A stretch of DNA of 63,216 bases, counting the filler, from Asterionella formosa (lineage: Eukaryota), in the NCBI GenBank assembly GCA_002256025.1. It is 25 parts of 25 records of this genome, joined end to end, with 100 filler letters (N's around TTAATTAATTAA, not from the genome) between each part and the next. Parts side by side here need not be neighbours in the genome. Positions count along the whole stretch, not along the records: positions 42,491 to 43,993 come from NKIB01002170.1; 24 more parts are not named here. One strand, written 5' to 3'. This document shows positions 1,849 through 62,997 of this stretch, in pieces. A program made the position numbers and the translations under genes. The stretch's first letter is position 1, and each line of letters opens with the position of its first letter. The notes beneath the pieces are model-generated. The model was not told the origin of the DNA. It did not search any database and worked only from the letters and a program-made list of their open reading frames with translations.

Positions 1849-1954
1849 TAAAAGTGGACCAGCAACAGGACCAGCTGTTGTCTTTATCTTCCTTAAAGTT
1901 CGATGATCTTAAATTCATTTACCGGTACTGTCCCGCTGTAGTAGCAGCAGTCAA

Positions 1955-2230: not shown

Positions 2231-3528
2231 CTAGTTTACTACTCCGACTACCCCCAGTATATCACTTACTAAGTGCTACTGGTACTCTGTATATATATAT
2301 ATGATATATTGTTATTGTCATATGATGTACCGGTACACATGAAGAGCTCCCGACCAAAAAAGGGGCTTAAACAATTTGCTACCAAAACCCTGGCGGCTAT
2401 TTAACGGTCTAAATAATTAGTTTCAACGGACGTAGAAAATATCGATGCAAACAAATTTCAGAAACAATTCCGGTACACGTAGTCGTGGAAAACAATGGAC
2501 ATATAGCTAGTGCATTGAGTATTTTCGAATTATGTAAATGCCAGTATGATCATCTCAACCATATCAGATGTCCATATCGAGAGCGCCTTTGAATTTTATA
2601 AATGTATAACACTTTATATATATATATATATATTTACAAATTTTATTTCTATATTCATGGCATATATATTTTTGAAATCGTTCTGTCATGTTAACAAACA
2701 ATGCCTGCTGCTTCATGAAAAGATACGTCTTAGTAAAGCACATTAAAAGAAAAGAAAATTTTCGCAATACATAACGAAAAACATTGTGACTTCGACACAT
2801 TGCGCATTCGAAGGATGGAGAATGTTTAAGGTAATGAAGCCATCAATGTGCGTAGTACTTGGATGACAATCGTTGGGAGACAGGCAGCACAACAACAAAT
2901 TGTTAACTAAACGCAGCCACATTTCCTTTTTTCTCAGTTGATTCAACAGCTCGTTTCGCTTGTTGGGGAGCACCAATGTAAAACAAAACCAAATTGGTAA
3001 GTGCTCTTGTCGCTCGTTGGACCTATTCACTTCTGTTGGAACAAAGCTGACAAAACGTTTACCTTCTCTCAAAGTTAAGATGACAAAAATGTACCGGTAA
3101 GTTTTATTCNNNNNNNNNNNNNNNNNNNNNNNNNNNNNNNNNNNNNNNNNNNNTTAATTAATTAANNNNNNNNNNNNNNNNNNNNNNNNNNNNNNNNNNN
3201 NNNNNNNNNTCTCATACTCCTTCCCGTCTGACGGGTTTCCTCTTACGTAGGACTTGCATGTTATACCACTACCGGTAGTATTGTTATCTTCTTTCTGCTG
3301 CTAGCCTTTGTGCTAGTTTTTGCTATTGACCTTACTCTGTCAATTCTCATTGCTTCTTAATTATATAAGCTTAAACTAAAATTAAGTTTCAATCCCATTC
3401 ATCACACTTCGAGAATCTGTTCTTCGTGTTCCCTTTTCGTTGATGTAAACCTTCTTCTGTTTGATCTAAGACATCAATCTCGTTAGCAAGCTTCTTGACA
3501 TGGGAAAGCACCATTTTGACTCATTGGA

Positions 3529-9270: not shown

Positions 9271-9904
9271 GTTGATTGATGGGTGACAGGTCGCGTTGTT
9301 AACCCTCACATCTGCATATATGGAAGGGAAAGATGTTATTAATGTCGAAATCCAAATTATTGGACACAGACACTACAAAGCCTCTGCAGCATTGTGCACA
9401 AAGCAAATTAAGTCCTGTTTCTTACCTTGTAATTAGGTTGATTTTTATCGTTGGTCCTGAGGAAGTGTAGATACTTTGAGTGGTAGCAGCGCACACGAAC
9501 AACGATACAATTTTATAGTTTGCTTCNNNNNNNNNNNNNNNNNNNNNNNNNNNNNNNNNNNNNNNNNNNNTTAATTAATTAANNNNNNNNNNNNNNNNNN
9601 NNNNNNNNNNNNNNNNNNNNNNNNNNACAGAGGCTGCTCTATTGCTACCGGTATTATAGTCGAATGCGCGAGCGTGCGGTCACATCAGCTCCGCAGCTTC
9701 CATGGGAGTTCTCGATATTATGTGTGTTGTGTCCATCCACTGTCCACTGTCCATTGTATGTATCAAAATGGTTCCATTCTATTACCATCACCCGGTAGCG
9801 AAGTGTCCAAGGCCTCCTATCAACAACTGTTCAACAAACATGTAATTCAAGTTGGAACATGGGAACACGAGAAGAGCATGGTGTGGTACGAAATGATTAT
9901 TTCG

Positions 9905-23831: not shown

Positions 23832-24759
23832 TCCCGGCTCCTAGACGGCTTCCCTATGTAGCAACCAGCCCTTCTAGGGCTGGTGGGCATGCACATGGTA
23901 TGACTTATTCTAGAGTATTACCGGGTACTGTTATAATAAGCATTGTGTTAGTATCTGTTGTTGTTTATGCATAAAAACATGTCGAATTCAATGGTGTTGT
24001 AGACTACTTACCAGAGCGGATTCTTTCCGGCTAGGCTGATTTCAGTCCAATTGACTCTGGATTCAGTCTGGGTTTTCAATCCCTTGCCTTTATATCAAGT
24101 CAACGGATATTTCATTTCTGAAAAGTTAATCTAAGTCTACAGAACTGTAGGTTTCTGGAGGTATGCATGGCCACAAGCTTATAGGTTTACAAAAAATTTC
24201 AGATACATGAGAAGCCTACCAACCGAAAAAATCTCAAAAATGTTTGTGCGGGATGGCGCGAAAACGAAGATTGACCATGGGCAAAGGTGCCGTCGTTTCA
24301 TGCCTATCCAAGTACATTCATCCCTCACACTGTGGGTCCAAAATCATCATCTGAACATTGGAAAAGGTCATCGACTTGAAGGAATGACAGTTCTGTAAAG
24401 GGAGCTCAAGAAAATTTGAGGTAAAGAGGTGATGGCCATTGTGGTCACAGCCCCCGGGACTGTGGATGATGCTGATACGACTGAGCTGTATGCTCTTGAA
24501 CAGCACTTCAAGATCATTTCTGTAAAAACTAATTTTACTATGGCGAAGGCGATTATGTACCTGAGGAGGCAGTAGAAGATGAAGAGATGCCTTCCAAGCT
24601 CTTCGAACTTGTCGACTGTACTGGCACAATTTGAGATGCTGATGACGTTGCCCTTGCAGCTAGATTTGTTGCTATTGATGATGACAATGCCCCAGCACCT
24701 GAAAATGTTGATCATCCCAATTAATTAATAAAAAATTTGTTTGAGGATGAGTAAGGACA

Positions 24760-25385
24760 CTCAGGAATTTGCTACAGGAGACTGACCAGTGCATCAAATT
24801 GCAATCCAAGACTTTCATCATTTCCAACTCAGTTGAAACCGTCTGTCTTCCAATAGTTCGAACTATTTTTCTTTCTGAGTTCTTGAAAGATAATGTTTTT
24901 TATCAATAATCTAAAGATAGAGGGCAAATCTGTTACCAATGGTGAGCTACTCAGATGGATTGGAATATGGTTTTAAATGGCAACAACGCAGGGAACAAAA
25001 CGGCATGATTTTAGGTCTTGCACCTACAAATATTTTCGACAATGCCTCATTTCGGCTGAATCACCTCATGTATCGTGATCGATTCGATTCAATTCTTAAG
25101 GCTATAGGCTATACAATTTGGCCAGCACCTGATTATCCGGACCGTTTTCATGAAGTAAGGGGAATGATTGAATCATGGAATGAAAACATGCAAAATAATT
25201 TTAAGCCAGGACACATTGTATGTTTAGATGAATCATTGTCTACATGGGCATATCTGTCCTGGATTCATGTTTGTTCCCCAAAAGCCTTGGCCATTTAGAA
25301 ATGAATACCACACAGTTTTCTGTGGCAACACAGGAATCATGTTTGTGATGGAAATAGTGGAGGGAAAAGATGCTCCCCAATCATC
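24760..25385 (+). mobile_element. piggyBac-like (DDE_Tnp_1_7) transposase pseudogene fragment
   Basis: MYRDRFDSILKAI, DRFHEVRGMIESWNENM..FKPGHIVCLDESL and PGFMFVPQKPWPFRNEYHT..CGNTGIMFVMEIVEGKD. Confidence 0.85.
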
Positions 25386-27229
25386 GTCTGTGAATAGATT
25401 TTCCATTAGATCTAACGTTTTACTCAGCAAACGTTAAAAAACTGATTGATTAATCAAATTTTTTGATTTGTTGATGATAATTTTGATATATCAACGGCAG
25501 TGTCTGTATGATCAATCAAATTTGTACATTAGGTTAGTAGCAAAGTACACATATTAGGTTATGCATACATAAGAACTCGTATATATTAGTTACCAAATCT
25601 AATCGGTTAATCCAAATTGTTGATATATTGATCAAATGTTTTGTTACATTGATGATAATTTTGATATATCAATGACCGTGTCGGTGTGGTCAATCAAATT
25701 TGCTTGTCAGATTATTTTCTTAGACACGTCAGGTTACGCATAGATAGAAGTCATATATATTAGTTATCAAAACTAATATGCTAACCAAGTGCTTTGATAT
25801 ATTGATACGTTGTTTGATTGATCAATAGCTGTTGTTGTTCTTCGATCAATTATTGTTTTAGCGAAGGTTATGACTTTACACAGATCACCTTACGTGTATG
25901 TAAACCTTGTACCCAACGATGCTATCAGAATGAATTCTGTGCAACAAGGGTGCATTCCTTGTTGCCGTTCCGATTTGAATGCTCTACCGGTACATGCTTT
26001 GATCCAATTCTTGTACCGGTAGCTAGTATTCTTCATTATCTCTCCATTCGCATATCAGTAATCGAATTTCTTACAAGCCATGTGCATTTGTTGAATCCCT
26101 TACGAGCTACCTTCTTGCGTGGACGACGATGATCTCAGTCTTATAACGAATGAAATGGTCTCGATATTGATGGGGAATTATGCTGGCGAAGTTTGATTGT
26201 TTGTTTGTTACTCGAAATCAAAAGCTTTGGTCAATTTGTACGACTGAATTGGAGAACGATGCATTGAAGGCCATACCTGATTCCAATTCCAACCGAAATC
26301 AAGAAGATAATACCTTTTGATCATAATTCGCCCATTGCGAACATCGATCCGTATTTCGGATCTGTTCTTCAAGATGAGATGTGGATCAAAGTGAAGATGG
26401 AACAGATGGCGGCGCAGTCTGTTGCTCATGGCCTTAATCATGGGTCTTCGATTATCATTGACTAGCTATTGGCAAGAACATTTGTATGCTGCAGAATTAG
26501 AGCCGCAACATCACTAATCAGGAAGTAGCTTCATTTCATTCAGGAAATAGTAGCATCACATGGACCTTGAATAGCAGGGGGTTCGAAATAACAATTGTAA
26601 CTTTGCTTAATAACATTGTACTATCCCATTGTTTTAAGAAATCTCTTTATCGGCAACAACAGAGGCAATCTATAGAACAGCCTAATCCCATCGACTTCCT
26701 TGGAGCGTCTAATTGAGTCTATCGAATCTGATAGACTTGATAGAAAATCTCCCCCTTCCAAAGCAAACAAAGCAAAATGTAAATTAAAGGCAACTCCAGA
26801 CATGGTTGCCAATCCAGAAGAAGCAGTCCATAACTTGTCACCAAAGAGTTCCGAAATTGTAGGAGTGATTGTGAAAGTTTAAAAAATCAGGTTGAGAAAG
26901 AAAGTGATTTGTCCCATTTATGCAGTAAGGACTTGGAAATATTGAAACAGGACATGGTCGCCAGGCTGGATGTAATTCATGATTACTTACCAAAGATTTC
27001 CGAAACTGTTGCAGTCACTGGGACAGTAATTGAGCAGGTCAAGGAGATATGTGATTTATCCTGTAATGATAAACCATTATTGAAATTATTTGATGAAGGA
27101 ATTCATAAATTTTTATGCGAAAGAGCGAGGAGAAGTGAAGAAACATCAATTACTTGTATCGAAAAAATCGATAAATGGAAAGGTAGCAGCTGCTGTTTCG
27201 GGATATGGCAACGAATTGGAATGTTTCAA

Positions 27230-28673
27230 TGATCACCTTTATAGTGTTTCACCCTCTTTTTTTTGTGTAAAGCATGTCCCGCCCATTCTGCGTGAATTGC
27301 CAAGTATTTGATTCACCTTTCCGGTTCCCACTTCCGTTGGGTTCGGAGTCACATAAGCTTTACTACAATACATACTCTCGTTACCCCTCAGAAGTTCGTC
27401 AATATTGCAGGAATGAGTATTCCTTTATATTGTCAGAGAAGCAGTACAGGGAAAATTGTATTGAACTGGACAATTGCTGTGCATATTGGGATATTGAAAT
27501 TGTGACCGCCATTGTGAAGTTCATTGTTCATGAACTGCATCCCTCAAACATTCATGTAATTGTTGAATCTCAAGACAGAAATGACTGGAATATTGAACGT
27601 CCTTATCCATTTAACAGTTTTTATCTCCAACCCTCCATTGAATTCCTTATTGTGATTTATTTACAAACACGACATCATCAACATTATGTTCTATATTGTT
27701 TTGATCTAAACGAAGAAAACGTTGAAGTACGTGATCCTGAACATGGAGTTAGTTTGAAAAGTCATTTGAAATGCATTCACGAGATTGCACGCAAATATCG
27801 TATTTGCCCTGGTGTAGATATTAACAAAGAAATTATTCCCTCCAAAGCTATGGTCAAATTCAAAACCGAGTTCGAAAAATGGAAATCTGGCATGAAGAAG
27901 GCTCGATCAGAATGTCGAGAGAGTTTTCTGAAAACATTCAGTGAGATCCCAAAAATCCGAGGTTACACCGATGGGGAACCTCAATTTAAGGTGGGTGGTG
28001 GTTTCCGTGGGAAAGGCCTCTGAAACGTTTTATAGCAAAACATTCAGATTCAAAGACTTTCCAACCAACCAAGGATGGTGGATGGTTATGTGGTCCCTTT
28101 ACAATTGTGAAGTTTATGGAATTACTATTACAACTACGATACAGTGAAGAAACTTATTTTATGGGGAAACGAAGGGAGTCATGTTTAACAAAGGATGGTT
28201 GGAATACCTTTATTAAAATGAAATTTAAGGGTGAAAATCAAAATGGATGGTCATTTCCTGGTAGTCCAGAAAATGACGTTGAAGATGCAGTTATGATGTA
28301 TGTTCTCAACACCATTGTGAGTTCATGTGGTGACAAAGTTGCAGCAATGGAGTTCAATCCTGAATTCGAGTTATCTCCGATGTTAACTACAACTGAACTA
28401 ACGTATCTTAGTAAAATGGTTCATCATCCCTTAGAATCTTACCATTGGCATGGTAATAAAGAAACCTTGAAATTTGAAAAAGAATACGAACGTGCTTTCG
28501 TTGTTGCTGAGGGCATGCAGAAAGTGAGCAGGTATGCTGTCCTCCTGAATGACAGCCAGCATGATATACTATACAAAGATTTCAAGAGTTTCTTGAAATC
28601 TTCGGAAGAATCAGTGGATGATGACAGTTCATTTTCATCGTCAGGTTCTCAAAAAAAAGAAGAAAAATCATAA
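27230..28673 (+). pseudogene. Ulp1/SENP-like (C48) cysteine protease domain gene, frameshifted
   Basis: FLIVIYL...QHYVLYCFDL..VEVRDP gives His and Asp. In the frame of ORF 28107, FQPTKDGGWLCGPF gives Cys at 28089-28091. Confidence 0.6.
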
Positions 28674-28752
28674 AGATAAGTAAACTATGAATTCGGAGGC
28701 AGCTATTAAATGTTGAAGTATATTGTAATAATTTGTATTGTGACGATTAGTG

Positions 28753-29560
28753 CTACTTCTCTGTACTTAAAAGAATATCCCAACCAATCAATTTCCATTG
28801 ATTTCGTGGTGGTAATGCAATATAATAATCTGTATTTTCCATGGCTTCAACGGTTTCTCGTGTACTCATACATTTACTCATTGTAGCTGGTGCTAAAGCT
28901 GGGACTACAAATGCTGTGGAAAGAATGTTGTTCTGCTCAACAACACTTAATCCAGTCTTCTCATCACAAATGTAATCACCTGTAGCAAAAAACATGCGAT
29001 GATGGGCTGGCATGACAGTGGTACTCCTCAAAGAACGTATAGATGCAAAGAGTGTTTCAGTTCCATCTGAATAAACGACATTACCCCATAAAAGTAGCTA
29101 ATTTTGCTGGTACACTGTAATTTTTCCCATTTCGACTTTCCCAATTTACTTCAACCCAATCAAACCAAGAATTTGATTGATGAAGAGCGACTCTTGTCCT
29201 GTTTGTTCCATTTTGGATTACATCTTAAAATTGTTTTCGTACCGTCATCTTTGGAGATTATAGTAACATGATAATAGAAATTGATCCGATCTATCTCTAC
29301 AGACGCAGTTCCAGTAGAATTTTTGTCCTTGCATGGCTCCTGTACGGCAGGTTTACCATGTTCGTTGTCTGGGTGAAACAAGCGGTAGTATACTGTCCCA
29401 TCTGAGCGTTTTCGTTGTGTACACAGTTGTTTAATACCGCCGGAAATGTACCAAATTCCACATTGGTCTTTCTCCGCTGAGAAAGATAATTGTTTGGGTT
29501 TCACAACAATGGATGCCTCTGCTTCCTTTCTAGTGTTTATCAAATTTGTATCTTCAAATA
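28753..29560 (-). mobile_element. Plavaka-like transposase C-terminus, pseudogenised
   Basis: ILRCNPKWN, WFDWVEVNWE...VPAKL/LLWGNV and ILSTAFVVP...LPPRNQW. Two frameshifts. Confidence 0.6.
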
Positions 29561-29746
29561 CAGATTAATCTGATTGAACTGTATCAGTACCTCCGCCGCT
29601 CACCAACAGTGACATGGTGTAAACACTGGGGAAGAGAACTTTCCTGGCAAGTAAATATTTTCTTCCTTCATAACTCCTCAATAATATATCATGTTGGAGA
29701 CGATGTGTATGACCATTGACTCGTTTACTTGTAAATACACAAAATT

Positions 29747-30145
29747 GAAATGATAGGTTCTTGGTACTGGATATTCCATAACTTTACAACCATGAGACCT
29801 TTCCATAAAGTTGAACATCTTAATTGACTGAGGAGTAATATAGAATGATATTGTATCCACATCTCATTCTTGGAACAATCACCAACCCCATAAAATGGTC
29901 ATCATGTGATGTTGCAACATAAACACACGAAATGGAAATGATAGGTTCCTAGTACTGGATATTCCATAACATTACAAGTATGAGACCTTTCCATAAAGTT
30001 GAACATCTTAATTGACTGTGGAGTTATATAGAATGAGATTGTATCTATATCTCGAAATAGTAACAATCACCAAAGCCATAAAATGGTCATCATGTCATGA
30101 GCAAGGTTGCAGCATAAACACACAATGTTGAAATGATAGGTTCCC
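29747..30145. repeat. About 190-bp tandem repeat, two copies plus the start of a third
   Basis: GAAATGATAGGTTC recurs at 29747, 29935 and 30130 with conserved sequence in between. Confidence 0.9.
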
Positions 30146-31212
30146 ACCACTGCTTCTTTTGTAACCGTATGATTGTACTACTGATTCATCGATAGCGTTA
30201 TGAAGTTGAGATCTTTCCAATTTTTTTTACAGATTAACTCACTGGGGGAACTACTTTTGAATAGATTATAGCATCCATAGTATTTTTTTTCTTGTTACAT
30301 TTACAACGACCAATTTCAGGTCACTAGAAGGTATTATGATATAAGATAGTATCAATATATTAGAAAAAAGGCAACATTTCTGTTACCTGATTACGTTATG
30401 TCTTGTATGATAAACCCTGCTAAGCATAGACCTATCTTGATAATTTATAATCATCGAGTGAACCTAGGAGTGCGCAATTTGCGCGTACTGGCGCATTGAG
30501 CGCATTGTTCTTGATCAGTAGACTGTACCATATATTTACCAGTATCAGTATACCAGTATACTGTTGGATTGGAATAAAGTAACTGTAATAATAACTGTTG
30601 GGACTCCCCAATACCATACTGCCTGACGTTAGTACAAGTATAACTGGTATACTGCTGGATGCCAAAAAATGTCTTGCAGTTAACTGCAGTATAAAATCAC
30701 CGACCTATGCCAGGTACCATACCAGGTACCTGGTACCTGTGTACCACGTAGCAGATGGGAGACCTGTGTTAATCCATGGAATTGATGTACCGTACGATGT
30801 GCCGTTCAGCCAGTGCCAGCATAGCCACCAGATCTGGTACATACCAAGTGTTGCGATAATCGAACGACAGCCATAGAACATACCGGTGGTCATGATATTG
30901 TAGCACACCTTTGTTAATGACAAGGTTCCCCTCAACAACCTGCACCTATCATAGGTATACCGGTATATGTACCACTGTACACGCACTTACATTGGAGGTA
31001 TCACCCAATTAAGAACAATAGTATGCTGCCTTTTCTCATGGTAGACAATATGTATCCGTAATATCTCTCTATGGCTGGTATTAGTCAACAGTATAAAGCT
31101 AGTTGGCGTCAAAATCATTATTTCTTACATTTTTTCATGTTTATATTGAATCTAGAAACCATCATACATTTGCACATTCTGAATTAAATTAAATTAAATT
31201 AAATTGTAATAT

Positions 31213-31480
31213 TCCAACCACCTTGATTGTTGATTGCTACACTTGATGAACTTGCTTGCTGTAGAGCCACTCGATGCATATGTTGTTGCACCATTCTTCC
31301 TGATGCTGTGAGTACCAATATCCTCCACCTCATATCCATCTAGATCGCCTTCATGTCCATGTAGCAACCTCTTGATATTTTTTCTGAATCAATCCTCCTG
31401 CAGGTGAATCTCTTTTGAGATGCACAAACTATTTCTTCATTGTCTGACATGATATTTTGATGTGGCAGTGGGTTGCTTCC
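31213..31480 (-). mobile_element. Crypton-like tyrosine recombinase relic (absent from the ORF track)
   Basis: Manual translation: QED*FRKNIKRLL...GYEVEDIGTHSIRKNGATTYASSGSTA/SSSSVAINNQGGW. Confidence 0.75.
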
Positions 31481-31807
31481 ATAGGTATATTGTTGATTGT
31501 TTTTGTTCTCAATTGATGTTCATAATTGGCTGAGTCGGAACCCCTAGTACTACCGGGGGTATAGCTATTAGCAGTAAGCTATCATGCATGTACTGTCAAC
31601 GTGAATCCTACGATGGTACAAAAATGAACGCTGTTTCTACATGTTTTTGGGAGAAAAGTCTTCCCAAAAAGCCGCTGCTGACGGGGCCGCAGAAAATACA
31701 CGTGTTAAAAGCTAGAGGGGAATAAACGTCAGCACGGAAAAAGGGGAGAATTTCTCCCCAAAAATGTAGCAGGATCTCCTACATTCTCCACATTTTTCCA
31801 CGCTTCT

Positions 31808-33680
31808 ATGAAATCGCTTGGTATCAAAATGACAGGTGTGATGTATATATGTGAAGGATGTGCGCTAGCTAAGGCTAAATCAAAAAGTGTTCCTAAAATC
31901 ACTATGAGCAAGGCTACTCAACCGGGCGAACGTTTGAGCACAGATATCAGCGGTCAATATAAAAAGTCGATTTTAGGAAATGACTATTGGATCCTTGTTG
32001 TTGACGATTACACCGGAAAATCTTGGAGTTTCTTTGTTAAGAAGAAGTCACAGCTTGCTTCAAAGATTGAAGATTTGTTGACTAAACTCAAAACGGCTGG
32101 GTATGTTACCAAGTTTCTCCGTTGTGACAATGTGGTTGAAAACGTCTCAGGTTTGACAAAGCTATGTGACAATTTCAATATTCAAATTGAGTTTACGGCA
32201 CCCTACACGCCACAACAGAATGGAATTGTTGAGCGAAAGTTTGTAACCATTCGTCAACAAGCTTGTGCAGCAATGTTTGCTGCAAAATTTAATGATGAAT
32301 TTCAAGGTTTATTTTGGGCAGAGGCCATCAACACCAACACACGAATCACGAACATTGTGGCCACATCCAATGTTGTAAAAAGTGCAGATGAGAAGTTTTA
32401 CAAAAAGGTTCCAATGATTTAAAATCATCTAAGTCATTTTGGCAGGATTGGATGGGTGAAAATTGGTGCTAAGAAAACAAATAAACTCGAAGAAAAGGTC
32501 ATTAAATGTGTGATGGTTGGTTATTCTCATGATCATGCTGGAGACACTTGCCAAATGTTTAACCATCAGACAAGAAAGATTTTAAATAGTCGAAACATTC
32601 GCTGGGCTGATTGGCATGGCCAAACAAGTCCAAACGCAGGTTTGAGGGGGGATTTCAATGTGAAAGGGGACTTAGAAATGGTTGTTATTCCAATTGATGA
32701 TGAAAAGCAGGACGAAGATGTTATTCCTGCTGTGCCACCTATCCAACAGGATATTGATTTGGAAACGTCTGTTCCAGTTGTGAAACAAACAAGATTTCAT
32801 CTATCCGAAGCAGTGGGGAAGTTAGATGATGAGATCAACAAAGATGCTTCGAAGAAAGCAAAAAGTTGGAACGAGAATTGAAACGCCTTGATGGTTGGAA
32901 AGAAGTTACTGGCAAACGCACCAGTGCTCGGCGCAACTTACAACTAGATGACAAGGACAAAGGATCAATTGAAGAGATCGATTATGCTGAAGCGGCCAAT
33001 CAAGATGATGATAAACTATTTCTAATTGAAGAAGGAGTAGAGAGGTTCTATGCATATTCTACTACTCTTGCTTCAGATCCTGGTGAGCCAAAGCATTAAA
33101 AGGAGGCTATGAAAGGAGATAAGAACAAGCAGTGGACCATTGCTATTAAAAATGAGATCAACAATTTCTACAAGCGAAATGTTTGGAAAATGGTTCCTCG
33201 TGACAATCTCAAGGGCAGAAAACCCTTAGGCACACGCTGGGTATTCAAGAAGAAATCCGAGCAGGATAAAAGTATTCAATACAAAGGACATATTTTAGTG
33301 AAAGGCTACGTTCAGATCCCAGGACTTATTTGCTCCAGTTGCAACAGATGCTTCCATGCGTATGATATTCGCTCTCTCGTTATACAAATGGGATAAGTCT
33401 GAAGAAAAACGATGGGTTTGTGAAATCATTGATGTTGATGCTGCTTTTCTTGAAGGAGACATGGAAGAGCAAATCTATATTGAATGGCCAGATGGGGTTT
33501 TAGACTTTGGTTTCGTAACACAAGAAACAATGAAAAACAAATGCATGGAGTTGGAGAAGACCATGTATGGCACAGTTCAAGCAGCGCTACAATTCTTCAA
33601 GAAGATGGTTCAAAACTTAACCAAAGTTGGATTGCGGCAAAGCAAGATCGATCTATGCGTATTCTTTATAAAGGAAAACA
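31808..33680 (+). mobile_element. Ty1/copia pol pseudogene (GAG-pre-integrase, integrase, partial RT)
   Basis: CEGCALAK, LVVDDYT, LRCDN, PYTPQQNGIVER, WAEAINT, EPK, RWVFKKK, IDVDAAFLEG and MYGTVQAA. Several stops and frameshifts; truncated at both ends. Confidence 0.95.
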
Positions 33681-34368
33681 ATCATGGTTTGTGTTTAAAC
33701 ATTATATTGAATCTATGTTGCTGAATGCAGTTATAATACTACTGGCCGCACAAAGGTACATAAAAAAATCAGCTCCCGGTACCGGAGTACCAGAGTACCA
33801 GTATATTGATACCTGGTACCTGGTACCTCGTACATAATTTTGGTTCATGGTGATGGAAGACATGATGAAACGACCGATACCCTGCTACGAGGTTCCGGTA
33901 GTACTGACTTTACCTGCCGGTATAGAGTACATCTAATACGTGTGGTTCAAGTTTGGCTGGCGTGATTTTACAAGACCGGAATACTTCAGCCAATCTGGAG
34001 CAGGTGAGTAAATTCAATTCAACCAATCAGAGTTTATGTAGTGACACGGCAACTTACCCTGGAGTCTTTTAAGACTAAGAATTATGTAGCAAAACATACG
34101 AGAACGTTTTTGCCAATACAAATTCCGATTCCAGTATTTTGGCGACTGTTGGAAAAGCCGATCAGTTCGACTTTTTGGAGAAGGATTGCTCTACATCTGC
34201 GGGGTTTCATGAAGATAAAAGTAGATAGCTGTGTACCCTATAACGTCAGGAGTTAACTTCTGGAGAGAAACTGCAATTATGTATCGTAGATTTTTAGAAA
34301 AGCTTCGTAGCCCCTTTTTTGACTACCGTATTTTTGCGAAGTTAAACTAGGGTTGAAATGCAGGAATA

Positions 34369-34428
34369 TTTTAATTTTTGCCAAGGGGTTAAGGTTTCTG
34401 CATTTTAACCCCTAGGCAAAAATTAAAA
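34369..34428. repeat. 24-bp inverted repeat (23/24 match) with a 12-bp loop; arms end in TTAA
   Basis: TTTTAATTTTTGCCAAGGGGTTAA (34369-34392) and TTAACCCCTAGGCAAAAATTAAAA (34405-34428). Confidence 0.85.
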
Positions 34429-34799
34429 AATTGTTTAGGGTTGCCAAAATTCCCTGGAATTAAGAATTTAAGTAGCTAGGTATTTTTTATCTTAGCATGA
34501 TCATAATTCTCATCGATATCACTGTCTAAAATAGGATGAAATTGATCGATATTTAAAACTATATTTAAGAATGGTTTTATGTTTCTATATCTTGAATGGC
34601 TACAGAATGTTCTACAATGCTCTCATCGTAATGATTGGTGCTTCAGCTTTCACTTTCACTTCCACATTCCCCCAAATCCAATTCTGAAGGTTGTTGTACT
34701 GGTTGCCTTGCTGTTGTTTCCTTGCTTGCTTTGTTCCATTTACTCCGCCTGAGGGTTCTGAGTTTGCATTCACGCACTATTAAATCCGTTTCGTTGTTC

Positions 34800-35230
34800 C
34801 AATCAGCCATACTAATAAAGAGAAGCAATTCATTGTTAGCTGTTCATGTTTTGCTTACACAACAACATGCATTTCGCTTCTATCTGCCTTCACTTACCAC
34901 AAATTGAGGAGGTAACTGATGCATATTTCTGTAGAAGAATGTGTCAGTCGAAGATTGAATGAGAAGCAAAGTATCGATGAATAAATGGGCTCCAACACTG
35001 CTCTTTGTAACTTACAAACACTGTTTGTCTACCATTATCCTGAAAGAAGCAACACATGTGTGTCAGTTTTTCTAACAGTTGTAGATTGATCCAAAGATGG
35101 CTGATAGGCAGCACTTACCGATTTCTTTTGTCCACAGCCATTGATGGTTTGCCAGTCACCAAATCGAAAAGGAGCTATTGAATCACTGAAAGGGGACGAT
35201 TCATTCCGTAGTTTTAATCCCAGAAATTGA
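34800..35230 (-). pseudogene. Intron-containing gene fragment of a repeated family, homologous to 43490-43890
   Basis: Both copies share GTAAGTGCTG...CAG|GATAATGGTAGACAAA.AGT.TTTGTAAGTT and a second GTGGTAAGTGA donor. Confidence 0.5.
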
Positions 35231-37681
35231 TCATCTTGGCATTTGCTCTTGACAAACCGTGATGCTATGCACAGCTTGTTGATTCCGCCCGCCCTTCTCC
35301 ATCATATTCACTCATTCTTATCGTGCTGTATTGTCACTTCAGTTTTTCGCATCATGTGTTGCTTGAGATCCTTCATTTCTGGAAATGGATGCAGCATGAC
35401 AAAGAACATGAAAGGCATTTGCTGTTGCCTTACTACCATCAATTGATTCCGCCCTTCTCTTCTAAGCCGCAAGTATCATTGTGCTGTATTATCACTTTCG
35501 TTTTCCGCGTCATCATCTGTGTTAATCCTTCATTTCAGGAGCAAAGTGTATGCATGACAAGGAACATGAAAATTAAATGTATATATAGTTGAACATTTGC
35601 ATAGTTTTAAACACGCTCATTATACAGCACATCCTGTGTATACTAATATAAATTTTGATTATACATAATTCAAATATATACAATGCATGATGAGTTCATA
35701 GTTTTCCACGACCTGTTGAGTTTTTTCAATATGTTTTGTGTCAATTCTTGTACCTACAAGTCAGTGGCTGATTTAATTAAGCCCCTTCATAAACAGGATT
35801 CATCACCAATTTTTCAAATGGTCGAAATCATACATTTATGTAGCTATATATATAGACATATTGACCAAAATTCATATGGCCTACCGGTAGTACTGTATAA
35901 TTGCTGGGAATTACTTCCATCATGGAAATACCACAATAGTGCAGCGGAAAACTGAATATGCTCATGTGTTTAGGATCATTTGATCATATTTTTAAGATCA
36001 ATTAATCCTGATTCTTGAAAATAAATTTTGATTGTTCATTTTCTCATCAAAGACAGCGTTTATCATATGATCAATATGTTATGATCAAAGTTATAGGATA
36101 AACGAATCAAAATTCATTGATTAAAGATCATAGTTTTTACCGGAGTAGTTGCTCATGCATGCAATGACCCCTTCCCCCCCCTGCTGTATACAGTATGGAA
36201 GTGATAACCCCCAAGCTACCAAATTTTTATGTCTGGTAAGAATTATCGCAGCATGCATGCATTCATGACTCCTACTGGTATATACAATACGGAAATGATG
36301 ACCACCAGACTACCAATCCTATAGGTCCTCTAGAATTATCACAACATGGCTGCATTTCTAATGAATGGGCGGGAGGAGTAATCCATACTGCACCTGTATA
36401 GTATGAAATTTGAAATGATCAAATATAGTCTACACAAGGAGCAGTGCATCACAAATGCCCTGCTGTTGTAATTTTAATTCCTATGAAATCTCTTGATCTG
36501 TTCTGCGCTTTTTTGCCATAATTGTTTTCATTGGCTGTTTCACTGGACAGCATTCGAATTGATTGTGCTTTGAACGAAGCAATGCTTAAAGTCCACCCCA
36601 TTGCAGAATGGTGAGTCTCACAACTAAGTATCAGCCAGTCGATTAAAATTGTACTGTCTTTTGTGCACCCTCGTTGTGTTTGTACATTGACTTTGACTTG
36701 GCAGCTGTCAGCCAAGAGCAGCCATGGCATGCCACCATCTATTGTCTATACAAGTTTCGAATGCATTCAGCTATGATAACTTTTGCTCCCCCCTCCTAAA
36801 CACTATCTCACCACCCTTGTCATAGATTTTTCTTTTTTCTTTATCCTTTGGCTTTACAGGCCCAGGTTACTACTCAATGCCTTCATCTGCAAGATCAGCC
36901 AAGAAGGCCCACGTTAGCGTCAAGAAAACCTCAACCCCGATTTTCCTTACATGCTCCACCCATTGACTTCTTCATTGATGAAGTCGAGGTAGCCATATTG
37001 ACGACATCAGGTGGCGCAGGCTTGTGTATAGATTGATGATGCTGAAAGCAATGCTTCCTTTTCCCGTAGGTACCTATTTGTCAACATTGTTTGGGTCAAT
37101 CCATTCTTGTTCCCGCAAGGAGACCAGAAGCAATTATCCCTTTACTTCTCCTCCTCCCAAGAACCTTAATTTCTCTTTCACAATTGTCCTGATTTTTGCA
37201 GAGCATTTTTAGTTGTTCCTTTTTGATTCTTCCACTGGTTTCGTTCCCTTTTGCATTCAAGTCAAGTAACAAGCAACTCATTGAGATTTCTGGAGGTTTT
37301 GGTCAGTGGCACCATAAAGAAACAATCAACAGATCATGGCGGCTGTTATCCATTTTCTGTAGCAAGTGACATTCAAGAAGGGACTGGGATCATTGGGAAG
37401 AAAAATTAGTAGGATTCTCTGTGTTTGCCCCCGCCCGTTTGGCAGCCATTCTATCATTGCTTCCTCTCAATCAATACTAGCTAGTATAGCTAATGAAAAC
37501 CGTAATTAGATGAAATGTGACTTCCGGTTTCTAATATTGTACATTGTTGCACTACTGAAACTTGAATCCATAAATGGGCATNNNNNNNNNNNNNNNNNNN
37601 NNNNNNNNNNNNNNNNNNNNNNNNNTTAATTAATTAANNNNNNNNNNNNNNNNNNNNNNNNNNNNNNNNNNNNNNNNNNNN

Positions 37682-38889: not shown

Positions 38890-39184
38890 GTACATATAAC
38901 CGCTTGCCATATATACATATCCAAACCAGATATATATAGACTCATAAAAAGCCAACACTTTTCGACTAAAGCAATATACCCACGCTGTAACCGCGAGCCA
39001 TAAATATATTGATACCATTTATAGTTAAAAACACGTTTTCCACTGAACAAATGTGCCCACGCCTTAACCGCGAGCCATGTATATATATCCACACCATTCA
39101 TATTATAGATTCAGAAAGAGCAGCAATTTTTTACTGAAACGCACTACCGGTAGTGGCGCTATGGCTCTGTAACCCTAACCCTAA
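38890..39184. repeat. Short direct repeats followed by a hairpin and (CCCTAA)2; possible transposon subterminal region
   Basis: CCCACGC..TAACCGCGAGCCAT twice plus a degenerate copy, CACTACCGGTAGTG at 39142-39155 and TAACCCTAACCCTAA at 39170-39184. Confidence 0.5.
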
Positions 39185-42714: not shown

Positions 42715-43060
42715 GATGTACCGGTAGTCAGCTGTTAAATTATGTCAACACCTGGTACCTGGTACCAGGTACCAGGGTTACTGTAGTTCGGGCATTGACG
42801 ATGGATCAAATTACCGGTGAACCGGAATGTAACATACCGGTAGTTTTATTTTAGATCTGGTACCTGGTACCAGGTACCAGGTACATGGGTACTACTACCA
42901 GGTACCATCAAGTACCAGGTACATTATTTTATCATCTGCCGGTATATACCACCTTTGCTTTTGTCGACATGAAAGAGCATACCACTGGCAGTCGTCACCT
43001 TGTAGCTCATTATACTCCCTCAGTACCCCTGGTACCAGGTACCCTGGTACAGGTACTACC
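42715..43060. repeat. Dense cluster of TA-CC[A/T]GG-TA and TA-CCGG-TA units
   Basis: For example TACCTGGTACCAGGTACCAGGTA at 42861-42883, a similar chain at about 42751-42776, and TACCGGTA at 42719. Confidence 0.9.
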
Positions 43061-47299: not shown

Positions 47300-48801
47300 T
47301 CTACCGGCAAACCAATCTCGCTTGTACCGACACCTGGACCAACGTCAAGTCCAACATTTAATCCAACACCTCTCCCTACCGGCAAGCCAATCACGCTTGT
47401 ACCGACCATGGACCCTACGGCTCCTCCGACACCTGGATCAACGACTAGTCCAATCTTAAGTCAAACATCTCTTCCTACCGGCAAGCCAATCACGATGGTA
47501 CCGACGATGGACCCGACGTCTTCACCGACATCTGGACCAACGATTACTCCGACTCAGAATCCAACACCTCTCCCTACCAACAAGCCAATCACGGTTGTAC
47601 CGACCATGGACCCGAAGTCTTCACCGACATCTGGACAAACGAATACCGCGACATTGAATCCAATATCTTCCCCTACAGTTCAGCCTACATCAAAACCAAC
47701 ATTGCTACCGACAGGTGCCCCTACTCATCGGCCTACACCTTGGCCAACTCTATGGCCAACAGTTAGACTTACACAATTGCTAACAGCTCAGCCTACTCCT
47801 TGGCCGTCACCTGCGCCAACTGGTATGCCGACAGCTGACCCCACTTCCTTACCAACATCAAAACCTACACTGCTACCAACAGCGGATCCTACTTTGTTAC
47901 CAACAGTTAGGCCGACAGCGCGGCCAACTGCAAAACCAACTTTATTGCCAACAGTTGACCCGACACCTTGGCCGACATCTAAACCAACATTATCACCAAC
48001 TGCAGTCCCGACTACTTCGCCGACATCCAATCCAACGTTACTGCCCACTGCAGACCCGACAAGTTGGCCGACATCAAGACCTACAGATCAACCCACGATT
48101 GCCCCAACGCCTTGGCCGACATCAAAACCTTTATTGTCACCGACTACTGACCCAACCCCTTTGCCGCTAACCAGACCAACAGCGGATCCCACTACATTGC
48201 CAACTTCGAAACCAACGTTGCAACTTAAAGCCGCGCCAACTCCCTGGCCGCCGATATCCAACCCAACATCGCTACCAACTGCCGATCCGACTCCTGGGCC
48301 TACATCTAGACTAACATTGCTGCCAACAGCTGCTCCCACCCCACGGCCAACATCTAAACCAACATTGCTGCCAACAGCTGACCCAACTTCTTGGCCGACA
48401 TCTAAACCGACATTGTTGCCAACAGCTGATCCAACTACTCCGCCAACACCTCGACCAACGTTGCTACAAACGACTCTTCCAACTCCTTTTCAAACCTCCA
48501 AACCAATATTGTTGCCAACAGCTGACCCGACTCGTTGGCCCACATCTCAACCTACATTGCTTCCAACAGCTGTTCCAACTCCATTGCCAACATCTATACC
48601 AACATTGTTTCCAACAGCCAACCCAACTCCTTGGCCGACATCTAAACCAACTTTTTTGCCGACACATCGACCGACATTGCTGCCTACAGCTGTTCCTACC
48701 CCATTGCCGACATCTAAACCAACATCGCTACCTACAGCTGATCCCACCCCATGGCCAACATCTAGGCCAACATTGCTGCCAACAGCAAATCCAACTCCTT
48801 G
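47300..48801 (+). CDS. Pro/Thr-rich (PT-repeat) mucin-like protein, internal fragment
   Basis: About 500 open codons of PTxxPT with a 16-aa unit close to [16 protein letters not shown]. Third codon positions vary between units. Confidence 0.85.
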
Positions 48802-50179
48802 NNNNNNNNNNNNNNNNNNNNNNNNNNNNNNNNNNNNNNNNNNNNTTAATTAATTAANNNNNNNNNNNNNNNNNNNNNNNNNNNNNNNNNNNNNNNNNNN
48901 NACTGAATATATCGATGTTCAATTTGTTTGAATAATTTATTTAGATGCTAATAATTGAAGTAACAATTGCAAGTTTATGCTACTCGCCTCTACATAACTA
49001 GCTAAAAAAACTCATTTTTTCGAGTTAATCAACCCTATTCCATGCTCGCCCTAAAAATAAGCTGCTCGACACTGGATTCACTGCAAATTGAAGCAATTGT
49101 TTTCTCCCAGAGGGGTACAGCCAATCATGGTGACTTGCAAGCTAGTTTGTTGCAACAAATTGATAGGCAATGACAACAATACAGCTACTGTTGTGAATCA
49201 AGGAGCAGCAGATGCATTGAGTAATACCACAAAAGTCTATATTTGTTCATTCAATATCTACAAACAAGTATAGTGATGAGTATGTCCTTCTAAAGAATGG
49301 TGACATTGGAAGATCATTGTTTGATATGGACTCACTATGGGACAGGCACATTTTGCTTCTTCCAAGTGTACCCACCTGCACCTGACAACCTCCTTTCTCC
49401 TGCCTACTACAGCAATTTTTTAAACATTATCATCACAACAACCAAGACTCCATTGCCAATTTTCCCCTTGCTATGCCTTCTATATCAGTTCATGATGCAC
49501 TTCTCCAAATGGAATTGTAAACAGGTCAGGAATTTTGTGAAAGAAGCGGATCATCCTAAGATGACATTCCAGCAATGGCAATCAGCAATAATGATGCTGA
49601 GGATCACAAATCTTCGAAAGGTAAGTGAAGAAGGAAAAGGGTAGGTGATACATTTCATAAATAACTGGAACAAAATTGGGCTTGGTACCCAAAGCATCCA
49701 CCAAGAAAGAATAACTTGGATTTGGTGAACGACTGTTCCCCATTCTGCAAAGGACACACTACCTGGTACCAGGTGAAGTATCTAACTAGAAGTAGTAGTA
49801 TTTGTTGAATATATGAGCTTATTTGTTAATCCTTGTGTGTAACTCGTTCTCCAAGTCGACACCAAAGTATACAATGAGGGTTAGTCGAGTTCTCTCATTA
49901 TTGAGTTCTGATACATATATGATATAACACTAACCCTATATACATCTGTATTGATGCGCAAGATCGCTCACTCTCCCACACCAAGGGAAAACCTTTTACC
50001 TTTGAAAAGGTTTGATGTAATGGATATTAATTCGTTCCGTTGTATGCATAGTTTGTTGAAAAGTAACTGTACCATAGGATTCGATAGTGATGTAGGAATA
50101 ACAATACGTCAAGTATCTCCTGGATTCTTTACAAAATACATGAAATGTATATGATGAAAATTGATAGAGGGAAAATTTA

Positions 50180-60379: not shown

Positions 60380-62997
60380 TAAAAGTGGACCAGCAACACG
60401 ACCAGCTGTTGTCGTTGTCTTCCTTAAAGTTCGATGATCTTAAATTCATTTACCGGTACTGTCCTGCTTTAGTAGCAGCAGTCATAGACATATGTATATG
60501 GTGTTCTATTTATACAATCCTAAAACTATGATGATTAACTATGGTGTTCTATTGCTTGCTTATTACTCCGACTACCGGTACCGCTTTTCAGTTTTACGAT
60601 CATACAATCCTAAAACTATGATGATTTACTGTCCCACTGTAATTGCAAGTCATGAACATATGGTGTTCTATTTGTTTTTAGTTTTACGATCATTTGATCC
60701 TAAAATTATGATGATTTACTGTCCCAATGTAATTACAAGAGTCATAAACATATGGTGTTTTTTTGGTGTTTTTTTACGATCATACGATCCTAAAAATATG
60801 ATGATTTACTGTCCCACTGCAGTAGCAACAGTCCTGAACATATGGTGTTCTGTTGCTAGTTTACTAGTCCGACTACCCCCAGTATATCACTTACTACCTG
60901 CTACTGGTACTCTGTATATATATATGATATATTGTTATTGTCATACCGGTATGATGTACCGGTACACATGAAGAGCTCCCGACCAAAAAAGGGGCTTAAA
61001 CAATTTGCTACCAAAACCCTGGCGGCTATTTAACGGTCTAAATAATTAGTTTCAACGGACGTAGAAAATATCGATGCAAACAAATTTCAGAAACAATTCC
61101 GGTACACGTAGTCGTGGAAAACAATGGACATGTAGTGCATTGAGTATTTTCGAATTATGTATATGCGAGTATGATCATCTCAACCATATCAGATGTTCCA
61201 TATCGAGAGCGCGTTTGAATTTTATAAATGTATAACACTTAATATATATATATATATATTTACAAATTTTATTTCTATATTCATGGCATATATATTTTTG
61301 AAATCGTTCTGTCATGTTAACAAACAATGCCTGCTGCTTCATGAAAAGATTCGTCGTAGTAAAGCACATTAAGAGAAAAGAAAATTTTCACAATACATAA
61401 CGAAAAACATTGTGACTTCGACACATTTCGCATTCGAAGGATGGAGAATGTTTAAGGTAATGAAGCCATCAATGTGGTAGCTACTTGGATGACAATCGTT
61501 GGGAGGCAGGCAGCACAACAACAAATTGTTAACTAAACGCAGCCACATTTCCTTTTTTCTCAGTTGATTAAACAGCTCGTTTCGCTTGTTGGGGAGCACC
61601 AACGTAAAACAAAACNNNNNNNNNNNNNNNNNNNNNNNNNNNNNNNNNNNNNNNNNNNNTTAATTAATTAANNNNNNNNNNNNNNNNNNNNNNNNNNNNN
61701 NNNNNNNNNNNNNNNAAACGTTTTGTCAGCTTTGTTCCAACAGAAGTGAATAGGTCCAACGAGCGACAAGAGCACTTACGCAATTTGGTTTTGTTTTACA
61801 TTGGTGCTCCCCAACAAGCGAAACGAGCTGTTTAATCAACTGAGAAAAAAGGAAATGTGGCTGCGTTTAGTTAACAATTTGTTGTTGTCCTGCCTCCCAA
61901 CGATTGTCATCCAAGTAGCTACCACATTGATGGCTTCATTACCTTAAACATTCTCCATCCTTCGAATGCGCAATGTGTCGAAGTCACAATGTTTTTCGTT
62001 ATGTATTGTGAAAATTTTCTTTTCTCTTAATGTGCTTCACTATGACGTATCTTTTCATGAAGCAGCAGGCATTGTTTGTTAACATGACAGAACGATTTGA
62101 AAAATATATAGGCCATGAATATAGAAATAAAATTTGTAAATATATATATATTAAGTGTTGTACATTTATAAAATTCAAACGCGCTCTCGACATGGAACCT
62201 CTGATATGGTTGAGATAATCATACTTGCATATACATAATTCGAAAATACTCAATGCACTATATGTCCATTGTTTTCCACGACTACATGTACCGGTATTAT
62301 TTCTGAAATTTGTTTGCATCGATATTTTCTACGTCCGTTGAAACTAATTATTTAGACCGCTAAATAGCCGCCAGGGTTTTGGTAGCAAATTGTTTAAGCC
62401 CCTTTTTTGGTCGGGAGCTCTTCATGTGTACCAGTACATCATATGACAATAACAATATATCATATATATATACAGAGTACCAGTAGCAGGTAGTAAGTGA
62501 TATACTGGGAGTAGTCGGAGTAGTAAACTAGCAACAGAACACCATATGTTCAGGACTGTTGCTACTGCAGTGGGACAGTAAATCATCATATTTTTAGGAT
62601 CGTATGATCGTAAAAAACACCATATGTTTATGACTGTTGTAATTACATTGGGACAGTAAATCATCATAGTTTTAGGATCGTATGATCGTAAAACTAAAAA
62701 CAAATAGAACACCATATGTTCATGACTGTTGCAATTACAGTGGGACAGTAAATCATCATAGTTTTAGGATTGTATGATCGTGAAACTGAAAAGCGGTACC
62801 GGTAGTCAGAGTAATAAGCAAGCAATAGAACACCATAGTAAATCATCATAGTTTTAGGATTGTATTAATAGAACACCATATACATATGTCTATGACTGCT
62901 GCTACTACAGCGGGACAGTACCGGTAAATGAATTTAAGATCATCGAACTTTAAGGAAGACAACGACAACAGCTGGTCGTGTTGCTGGTCCACTTTTA

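Follow-up and report, generated by a model that had tools for sequence, protein, structure and literature searches.

A 63,216-base stretch of DNA from the diatom Asterionella formosa (GCA_002256025.1), analysed at its full length and called the window here, carries short units of the form TA-core-TA, such as TA-CCGG-TA (TACCGGTA), TA-CC[A/T]GG-TA and TA-GC-TA, which stand alone or are joined into chains through shared TAs. These motifs are heritable micro-insertions that turn TA into TA-core-TA; in two diatom lineages they gather at hotspots, most of which lie promoter-side of genes. The units are bounded by TA, behave as insertions or deletions (indels) between copies, obey a palindrome rule, take random orientation, are excluded from open reading frames (ORFs) and are biased towards promoters. 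The most specific model that fits this anatomy is that they are footprints of TA-duplicating cut-and-paste elements of the IS630-Tc1-mariner kind, a model that is put forward tentatively, at somewhat less than an even chance.

Enrichment and boundaries of the units in the window

The window consists of 25 contigs, 24 of about 1.5 kb and one of 24,754 bases, which are separated by N44-TTAATTAATTAA-N44 linkers. Contig 8 repeats contig 7 in reverse (97.8% identity), and contig 2 has further copies in contigs 24 and 25 (93–96% identity); dropping contigs 8, 24 and 25 gives a non-redundant window of 56,310 bases. In the full window, TACCGGTA occurs at 25 sites against 0.25 expected, the largest count in any shuffle being 2, and in the non-redundant window at 16 sites against 0.35; the 25 sites comprise all 16 positions listed in an earlier note on this DNA and nine more. 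It is also the most over-represented 8-mer of the window, at 62 times the expectation of an order-2 Markov model. Similarly, TACC[A/T]GGTA (TACCWGGTA, W being A or T, and S below C or G) is present at 17 sites against 0.17 expected in the full window and 0.43 in the non-redundant one. TAGCTA, the GC unit, is only modestly enriched (23 against 8.6 in the non-redundant window), and TACWGTA, of the Sleeping Beauty type, is absent from the enriched words of the window.

The TA boundary is specific to these cores. TA stands on both sides of 16 of the 97 CCGG and 17 of the 94 CCWGG occurrences in the window, compared with none for the control palindromes GGWCC (0/46), GGCC (0/90), CTGCAG (0/16) and GAATTC (0/16). 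Isolated TACCGGTA in unrelated contexts is the usual case, and isolated TACCWGGTA is rare; since 23 of the 34 TACCWGGTA half-sites run on into CC, the real unit is GGTACC-W-GGTACC, a correction to the earlier note. The flanks of the 16 + 17 non-redundant sites show a bias of only 1–2 bases, and the window contigs share no similarity besides the copies named above; because the flanks are unrelated beyond those 1–2 bases, the units are not pieces of a dispersed repeat, and a miniature element that carries the motif within a longer family was rejected for the same reason. Among the five pairs of TACCWGGTA in the window that share a TA, two have the same and three the opposite orientation. Runs of at least three units make up 0.32% of the non-coding DNA of the window, compared with 0.01% in simulations. 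Some units are located upstream of an ORF (site 1920), others in anonymous DNA or within degenerate transposons.

The chains that the earlier note had described, compound ones included, were recovered at their places (42861-42883, about 30710-30737, 49760-49773, 26014 and 35882). The principal sites, for which no strand is assigned, are as follows:

42719..42726, TACCGGTA unit TA-CCGG-TA at the start of the stretch that had been flagged
42749..42776, chain CCTGG-TA-CCTGG-TA-CCAGG-TA-CCAGGG with mixed central T/A (core chain 42756-42771)
42835..42842, second TACCGGTA, 116 bases from the first, with TACCGGT/ACCGG half-sites between
42856..42921, chain TA-CCTGG-TA-CCAGG-TA-CCAGG-TA (42861-42883), then degenerate GGTAC pieces and two TACCAGGTA units (42896, 42913)
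43025..43058, degenerate chain GTACCCCTGGTACCAGGTACCCTGGTACAGGTAC
26014..26028, compound chain TA-CCGG-TA-GC-TA-G-TA, with another TACCGGTA 29 bases upstream (25985)
35882..35897, compound chain TA-CCGG-TA-G-TA-CTG-TA
30710..30741, chain CCAGG-TA-CCA-TA-CCAGG-TA-CCTGG-TA-CCTG (30720-30735 within)
33775..33830, GTACC-rich cluster CCGGTACCGGAGTACCAGAGTACCAG...TACCTGGTACCTGGTACC inside a frameshifted Copia reverse-transcriptase region
49760..49773, TA-CCTGG-TA-CCAGG, exactly where homology with the related contig L027 begins
1920..1927, TACCGGTA that precedes the start codon of a minus-strand ORF by about 85 bases and is conserved in three copies

At 10620-10690 (copy at 11665-11730), TAGCTA and TATA pieces make up a palindromic chain, CTATAGCTATAGCGATAGCTATAGC, which is a GC-core counterpart of the GGTACC chains. 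The Copia sequence at 33775-33830 gave no tblastn hit to the intact Copia of contig 14, being too distant, and its downstream frames are too degenerate to follow.

Occurrence in metagenomes and in a second diatom

The pattern of three chained units has no match in viral contigs and is found in at least 124 metagenome stretches from many separately named assemblies; 123 loci with 501,695 bases were stored. The 34 loci with a GC content of at least 0.55 contain no TACCGGTA and no TA-S-TA-S-TA outside the seeds and look like chance matches, compared with 295 TACCWGGTA, 40 TACCGGTA, 239 TAGCTA and 762 TA-S-TA-S-TA outside the seeds in the 56 loci of GC 0.42–0.50. Some short loci mirror the mix of the window, and L042 has 11 TACCGGTA in 1,966 bases. 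The second diatom, called group A, is represented by 24 long loci (GC 0.42–0.48, at least 4.9 kb each, 261,523 bases), which were picked by eye and are assumed to come from a single species; as they were seeded on CCWGG chains, their CCWGG counts are somewhat inflated. Genes are densely packed in group A and of ordinary eukaryotic kinds, a plastid-type sigma factor among them, and the nearest named relatives of its Noc2 are diatoms (Seminavis 60%, Mayamaea 49%, Epithemia 42%, Conticribra 42%). Runs of at least three units, such as TAGTAGTCTAGTACCAGGTACCTGGTAGTACTACTAGTAGCTACCAGGTACCAGGTAGTACCAGGTA (L045 10724-10790), account for 5.6% of its non-coding DNA, compared with 0.14% in simulations.

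These observations bear on a sequencing, adapter or assembly artefact, which the short contigs of the window might suggest and which is barely credible. The earlier note had allowed for a library artefact; the motifs are present in many independent assemblies and thus are not one, as the counts outside the seeds in the 56 loci and the absence of TACCGGTA from the 34 chance loci illustrate. Moreover, sites are common to copies that differ by 2–6% elsewhere, one of them with CpG decay, and the units avoid ORFs about 100-fold.

Core vocabulary and chain grammar

In group A, every core X in TA-X-TA without an internal TA was scored against an order-2 Markov expectation, and the following cores are enriched:

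CCWGG, 309 sites, 3.8 expected
single C/G, 1870 sites, 696 expected
GWC, 171 sites, 30 expected
GC, 201 sites, 65 expected
CTCGAG, 13 sites, 0.5 expected
CWG, 173 sites, 62 expected
CTCSGAG, 6 sites, 0.2 expected
CSG, 97 sites, 35 expected
CCGG, 16 sites, 3.8 expected

Most enriched cores are palindromic and come in even/odd pairs, namely GC/GWC, CCGG/CCWGG and CTCGAG/CTCSGAG, and the cores reported as not enriched are CCATGG (4 against 0.6 expected), CG (52 against 79), CC/GG (106 against 141), GATC (2 against 4.4) and CATG (2 against 7). The central base is restricted: in CC-N-GG it is A in 159, T in 150, C in 4 and G in 3 cases; in G-N-C it is A in 76, T in 95, C in 8 and G in 5; and in CTC-N-GAG it is C in 4 and G in 2, never A or T. 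TA flanks both sides of 309 of 735 CCWGG occurrences, the next flank pair reaching 15 and four control palindromes 0–1%.

Neighbouring units were compared in orientation and class. Adjacent CCWGG units have the same orientation in 40 and the opposite in 39 cases (18 + 21), the seed pattern having allowed either base. Core classes are mixed in 359 of 573 runs and fall into two sets: CCWGG pairs are enriched with CCWGG (79 against 21 expected), CCGG (10 against 2), CWG (30 against 16) and CSG (20 against 11) and depleted with GC (9 against 24), GWC (6 against 20) and single C/G (105 against 225), and the single C/G, GC and GWC cores intermix about at random.

Ordinary microsatellites would account for the chains by slippage of 7-base GGTACCW, 6-base GGTACC, 4-base CTAG and 3-base TAG/TAC repeats, with the A/T centres as later point changes. 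Uniform chains do exist (L049 has four successive CCTGG), L049 and L063 have chains of different length, and neighbouring single-base cores more often agree in orientation than not (421 same, 239 opposite); slippage contributes to the runs of these cores. As the sole cause it is very improbable and largely refuted by the CCWGG neighbours, whose random orientation means that slippage alone is not the chain builder, as the earlier note had maintained for mixed chains. In addition, point changes would have to strike the central base only, and as A or T only; slippage cannot seed single units in unique DNA, and it does not produce runs of mixed core class.

Indels at TA between copies

The comparison of copies relies on the following sites:

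60944..60951, no strand assigned, polymorphic TACCGGTA in contig 24, with another TACCGGTA 5 bases downstream
2504..2509, no strand assigned, polymorphic TAGCTA unit in contig 2
62423..62440, minus strand, TACTGGTA in contig 25, a CpG-to-TpG decay variant of the TACCGGTA present in contigs 2 (2328) and 24 (60957)
9646..9653 (copy at 12701), no strand assigned, TACCGGTA common to the alleles in contigs 7 and 8

Contigs 2, 24 and 25 differ by 11 indels, two of which are exact TA units. The predicted +CCGGTA and +GCTA indels were thus found exactly at TA. For +CCGGTA, contig 24 reads TGTCA-TACCGGTA-TGATG and contigs 2 (TA at 2321-2322) and 25 (62434-62449, reverse strand) read TGTCA-TA-TGATG; for +GCTA, contig 2 reads ACATA-TAGCTA-GTGC, contig 25 ACATA-TA-GTGC (62252-62267, reverse strand) and contig 24 ACATG-TA-GTGC (61126-61141). 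A third difference is complex (GCGTAGTAC vs GGTAGCTAC), and contig 25 shows the CpG decay of one site from TACCGGTA to TACTGGTA. The decay variant, together with the sites common to diverged copies, indicates that the units are inherited DNA. Contigs 7 and 8 keep both TACCGGTA sites and differ by only three indels, all of microsatellite type. TA-unit indels are absent from the alignments of contigs 1 and 14, of the internal repeat of contig 19 and of the internal repeats of contig 9, and in the read alignment none lies at a motif site among the 12 of 126 indels listed.

Similar differences are present in the metagenome loci. Two tandem Copia copies in L035, 97% identical, differ by 14 indels, about five of which are TA units: +TAGCTAGC at actTAGaac (the other copy reading actTAGCTAGCTAGaac), +TAGCAGTAGC, +TAC, +CTA and a partial +TAGC. 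L049 and L063, the sole diverged allele pair among the stored loci, are orthologous over about 900 bases; their unique parts are near identical and most of their large indels are chain DNA, for instance ACC-TA-CAGG-TA-CGC in L049 vs ACC-TA-AGC in L063, that is, TA-CAGG-TA vs TA. A scar bounded by duplicated TA is thus seen with a single-TA empty allele in contigs 2, 24 and 25 and in L063/L049, with the exception of a 29-base chain weighed below. The site orthologous to 9646 reads TA-CCGG-TA in contigs 7 and 8 and TA-CAGG-TA-(CCTGG-TA)x4-G-TA in L049, with conserved flanks; as different units are carried at one orthologous TA, this is a recurrent hotspot.

Position relative to genes

TACCWGGTA has a density of 2.90/kb outside ORFs of at least 150 aa and of 0.03/kb inside them in group A, a difference of about 100-fold, compared with which TA itself is only twofold rarer in ORFs. 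Between long ORFs, there are 5.0 units per kb in divergent, 6.0 in tandem and 1.27 in convergent gaps, and within tandem gaps the promoter-side half holds 7.8 and the terminator-side half 4.2 units/kb.

This distribution is what would be expected of selected promoter elements, that is, GTAC- or CTAG-centred palindromes that bind dimeric proteins or exclude nucleosomes, are multiplied by slippage and are kept by selection. The TACCGGTA about 85 bases upstream of a start codon is kept in three copies (site 1920 reads attTACCGGTACTGTCCC, and later repeat units read attTACTGTCCC there), and both TACCGGTA sites are conserved between the alleles in contigs 7 and 8. Nevertheless, such selection is an improbable explanation of the units. 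The sole orthologous comparison keeps the position with wholly different content (CCGG vs CAGG, four CCTGG and G), chains come and go between close copies (L049/L063, L035), and units are also present in degenerate transposons such as the Copia reverse transcriptase at 33775-33830. A dimeric protein leaves unexplained the even/odd spacing variants of several unrelated TA-bounded cores, and open chromatin hit by transposons or breaks predicts the promoter bias equally well.

Excision footprints and repair scars

Under the excision model, a transposase would make the breaks, the added bases would be element ends, and earlier footprints would be preferred as targets. On excision, each flank would retain its TA from the duplication and the outermost bases of the element, and joining of the flanks would give TA + E1..Ek + the reverse complement of E1..Ek' + TA. 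An end CCA... would yield CCGG (2+2), CC[A/T]GG (3+2 or 2+3) and CCG/CGG; an end GA... or GT... would yield GC and G[A/T]C; an end CTCC... or CTCG... would yield CTCGAG and CTC[C/G]GAG. Every new unit would supply new TAs, and units would accumulate at hotspots. Since k = k' or k = k' + 1 in this formula, even/odd core pairs would result, and because two ends of one inverted-repeat element are joined, TA bounds, palindromes, a central base limited to a base or its complement and random orientation would all be expected. CCWGG, CCGG, CSG and CWG do keep company in runs and avoid GC and GWC, as would be expected if they were products of the single end CCA.... The earlier note had derived CCGG from an end CCG and CCWGG from an end CCA, which is one reading; the single end CCA... 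suits both cores better, as they co-occur in runs. In group A, 305 units lie on 9,194 non-coding TAs, which would need a creation rate per TA of about one third of the per-base mutation rate, if a unit decays via 9 bases.

In the passages of PMC7827188 and PMC2874221 that describe it, a staggered cut with TA duplication and end-joining to TA + end bases + TA is an established scheme. According to a passage of PMC7386202, IS630-Tc1-mariner elements occur in stramenopiles, and mariner-like elements are cited there for the diatom Amphora. The main text of the diatom genome papers PMC5124317 and PMC8329260 contains no mention of mariner, Tc1 or DNA transposons.

A transposon-free alternative, and the main rival, is that the units are repair scars, which is possible though less likely than not. 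Breaks at promoter hotspots would be healed by microhomology-primed copying (polymerase-theta-type end joining or template switching), and TA-centred palindromes (GTAC, CTAG, GGTACC) would let a 3' end anneal to a neighbouring unit on either strand, so that copying would spread the vocabulary and make more palindromes. The clustering of units agrees with this, as 289 of 309 TACCWGGTA in group A lie within 200 bases of another CCWGG and only 20 lie farther away, and 8 of the 16 non-redundant TACCGGTA sites of the window are at most 120 bases from another; so do the random orientation, the runs of mixed class, their sorting by anchor into a GTAC and a CTAG series, and the promoter bias. A template for the +CCGGTA allele lies 5 bases off, flanked on either side by TA microhomology, one L035 Copia copy has three TAGC-type differences in a span of 150 bases, the presence or absence of a chain at a TA-less site (L049/L063) is accommodated, and neither donor element nor transposase was found in the window and loci scanned. 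However, repair copying takes any nearby sequence and does not predict a fixed vocabulary in two lineages, TA-bounded even/odd palindromes or a restricted centre. Isolated units lie in unique DNA with no local template (about half of the window TACCGGTA sites), the +GCTA allele has no GCTA in 35 bases on either side, and snap-back would favour opposite orientation, which is observed in 39 CCWGG pairs against 40 of the same orientation.

Two further origins were rejected. P-nucleotides from hairpin opening would, by reasoning, copy the flank, and the empty alleles have no CC or GC beside TA; fill-in after a staggered GTAC/CTAG cut predicts TACGTA (52 against 79 expected) and cannot create CCWGG, so it was rejected for the main cores.

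A number of points weigh against excision footprints, the first being the failure to find a donor. TA-flanked inverted-repeat elements with ends matching the cores, which the earlier note had looked forward to, are absent from the window (16-base arms, at most 3 mismatches, up to 6 kb) and from about 480 kb of loci (18-base arms, 7-base exact seed, up to 4 kb), in scans that covered a small part of the genomes and that short or diverged arms would escape. Apart from two structures described below, the inverted-repeat hits (9 in the window, 233 in the loci) are chain DNA matching itself, including all of those that begin CC... or GTA.... No Tc1/mariner or pogo transposase was detected with Pfam in 91 of the 116 window ORFs of at least 90 aa, the other 25 being overlapping or duplicate frames, nor in 158 of the 160 ORFs of at least 200 aa from the alga-like loci; the transposon-type matches are Copia, one RVT_1 fragment and one piggyBac-type fragment only. 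As cut-and-paste elements leave scars without multiplying, scars may far outnumber donors. In every comparison only empty and scar alleles are seen and none with an element in place; the indels among contigs 2, 24 and 25 can be read as gain or loss, the three copies being nearly equidistant; the +CCGGTA allele has its possible template nearby; and the 29-base chain in L049 stands opposite a GC/TG junction without TA in L063.

The anatomy raises further objections to excision. Known members leave a scar of about 3 end bases + TA from a 2- or 3-base stagger, and the dominant additions, of 7 (CCWGG+TA), 6 (CCGG+TA), 5 (GWC+TA), 4 (GC+TA) and 3 (S+TA) bases, do not as a set have that length. Whole-overhang joins (CCATGG, GATC, CATG) are not enriched, CCATGG being the unprocessed join from a 3-base stagger; the commonest core class is a single C or G, whose lean to one orientation resembles a TAG/TAC microsatellite; and three or four families must all obey the same odd/even rule. 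Shared TAs join 30 unit pairs outside the seeds, where random placement on all TAs would give about 3.4; sharing at about 9 times the level of random targeting needs a strong preference for earlier scars. The Tc1/mariner footprints proposed in the earlier note are supported in part: the TA indels, palindromic cores and restricted centre hold, and no matching element or transposase was found in the DNA scanned.

A more particular proposal, which is rather unlikely, is a diatom TA-specific break-and-fill process, in which a low-copy, highly mobile or domesticated Tc1/mariner-type transposase or another nuclease would re-cut promoter TAs and write palindromic units, to the extent of 5–8% of the non-coding DNA of one lineage and in lineage 'dialects'. 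The dialects would be CCGG-rich in the diatom of the window and TAG/TAC/GC/GWC-rich in the second. What probability remains after excision footprints, repair scars, promoter elements, microsatellites and artefact is left for an explanation outside these five.

Two other structures turned up in the element search. A candidate transposon at L050 5149-7729 was rejected, one of its arms lying inside a 771-aa ORF. L039 1919-2125 is a near-perfect palindrome of about 200 bases, TA-flanked, with outer arms matching at 18/18 and further inner matches, and may be a foldback or miniature element; its ends, AATTAAAG..., match no enriched core.

Genomic setting of the window

The ORFs of the window are eukaryotic and nuclear in kind (CDC45, armadillo-repeat (ARM) proteins, a RING protein and a mitochondrial-type L21), and its mobile-element ORFs encode Copia gag, integrase and reverse transcriptase, besides a single fragment of a piggyBac-type transposase. 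Every named relative of the CDC45 fragment comes from a diatom (Fragilariopsis 54% over part, Fistulifera 43%, Amphora 39%), and environmental proteins match it at up to 95%. Of the sequencing runs that contain this DNA, the best match is labelled an algae metagenome and many freshwater metagenomes come next, which points to a freshwater diatom. Scans of the window for tRNA and Rfam families gave no matches. An organelle, viral or prokaryotic origin was rejected on account of these null scans, the nuclear ORFs and the lack of any viral contig with the chain pattern. In four sequencing runs, 17600-20267 and 24000-37581 of the long contig behave as a very high-copy repeat, and single-copy behaviour in this contig is confined to about 20.3–22.9 kb; near-identical contigs from one other study cover 20.3–24.0 kb of the window.

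Several further observations concern the surroundings of the units. The piggyBac-type fragment (DDE_Tnp_1_7, E 2e-12) at 24921-25295 lies about 700 bases from the TACCGGTA pair 25985/26014; the target of piggyBac is TTAA, not TA. Contig 10 ends in CCCTAA telomere-type repeats about 20 bases past a TACCGGTA (39145-39184), and two interstitial TTAGGG lie about 10 bases ahead of TACCTGGTA at 14431 (14396-14439). A tandem repeat of about 90 bases with TACTGTCCC is found upstream of a small ORF (2045-2230, 60580-60900, 62480-62800), its copy number varying among contigs 2, 24 and 25. At 47300-48799, a 500-aa open frame consists nearly entirely of PT repeats (Pfam PT, E 2e-36) and runs off both contig ends. 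In the contigs of the second diatom, at least five ORFs (L045, L078, L014, L061) have a DUF6824 domain, which we take to be a diatom-associated family.

Significance

Diatoms are an ecologically dominant algal group. Should the units prove to be excision scars, cut-and-paste transposons would both interrupt sequence and create it, several per cent of the non-coding, mostly promoter-side DNA of a diatom would be built from a tiny alphabet, and this DNA would hold a readable record of transposon families that outlasts the elements. If they are repair scars, they would flag hyper-recurrent promoter breaks and self-feeding palindrome formation. Either way, the TA-unit grammar is a simple signature for such diatom DNA in metagenomes, and the units represent fast-evolving promoter variation that is testable in transformable diatoms.

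Comparison with known systems

No published description of the TA-unit grammar was found, although genome-paper supplements, which lay outside the search, may bear on its novelty; the chain words gave no match in a literature text search, and among the matches listed for TACCGGTA there are primers, barcodes and constructs, none a genome motif. To our knowledge, the 5.6% of non-coding DNA taken up by runs of at least three units is far above any density known for footprints.

HIP1 (GCGATCGC) of cyanobacteria is an 8-base palindrome that is over-represented many-fold genome-wide, and in this it is like TACCGGTA. However, HIP1 is bacterial and lies within genes, whereas the diatom units belong to eukaryotes, keep out of ORFs, are chained and act like indels, and we know of no case in which HIP1 arises as an insertion between duplicated dinucleotides. 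Polymerase-theta templated insertions ('filler DNA') are short, copied from nearby in direct or inverted orientation and clustered at fragile sites; filler DNA varies with each event, whereas the diatom units are a small fixed TA-bounded vocabulary at thousands of sites in two lineages.

The ends of Stowaway-type miniature elements begin CTCC..., which would fit the CTC(S)GAG core. According to a passage of PMC1925063, these elements target TA, lie near genes and are repeatedly gained and lost at one site, as are the diatom units. Such elements were not found in the DNA examined, and the diatom residue is at most 7 bases per event.

The closest anatomy is that of Tc1/mariner footprints (Sleeping Beauty, Mos1, Tc1), which likewise have a duplicated TA, end bases between the TAs and an A/T centre where overhangs meet. 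Minos is reported to leave four end bases + TA, a 6-base scar of the size of CCGG+TA. The Sleeping Beauty footprint is printed in a passage of PMC2874221 as TAG(T/A)CTA, and the earlier note had given it as TAC(A/T)GTA; in the second diatom each of the two words is in excess, at 171 sites against 30 expected and 173 against 62, respectively. Compared with Sleeping Beauty, whose canonical addition is 5 bases, the diatom additions of 4, 6 and 7 bases differ, which also tells against excision. The diatom units differ from Tc1/mariner footprints as a group in that no donor or transposase was found in the DNA scanned, in that their cores have 1, 2, 4, 5, 6 or 7 bases and not just 3, and in that they are chained on shared TAs and gathered on the promoter side.

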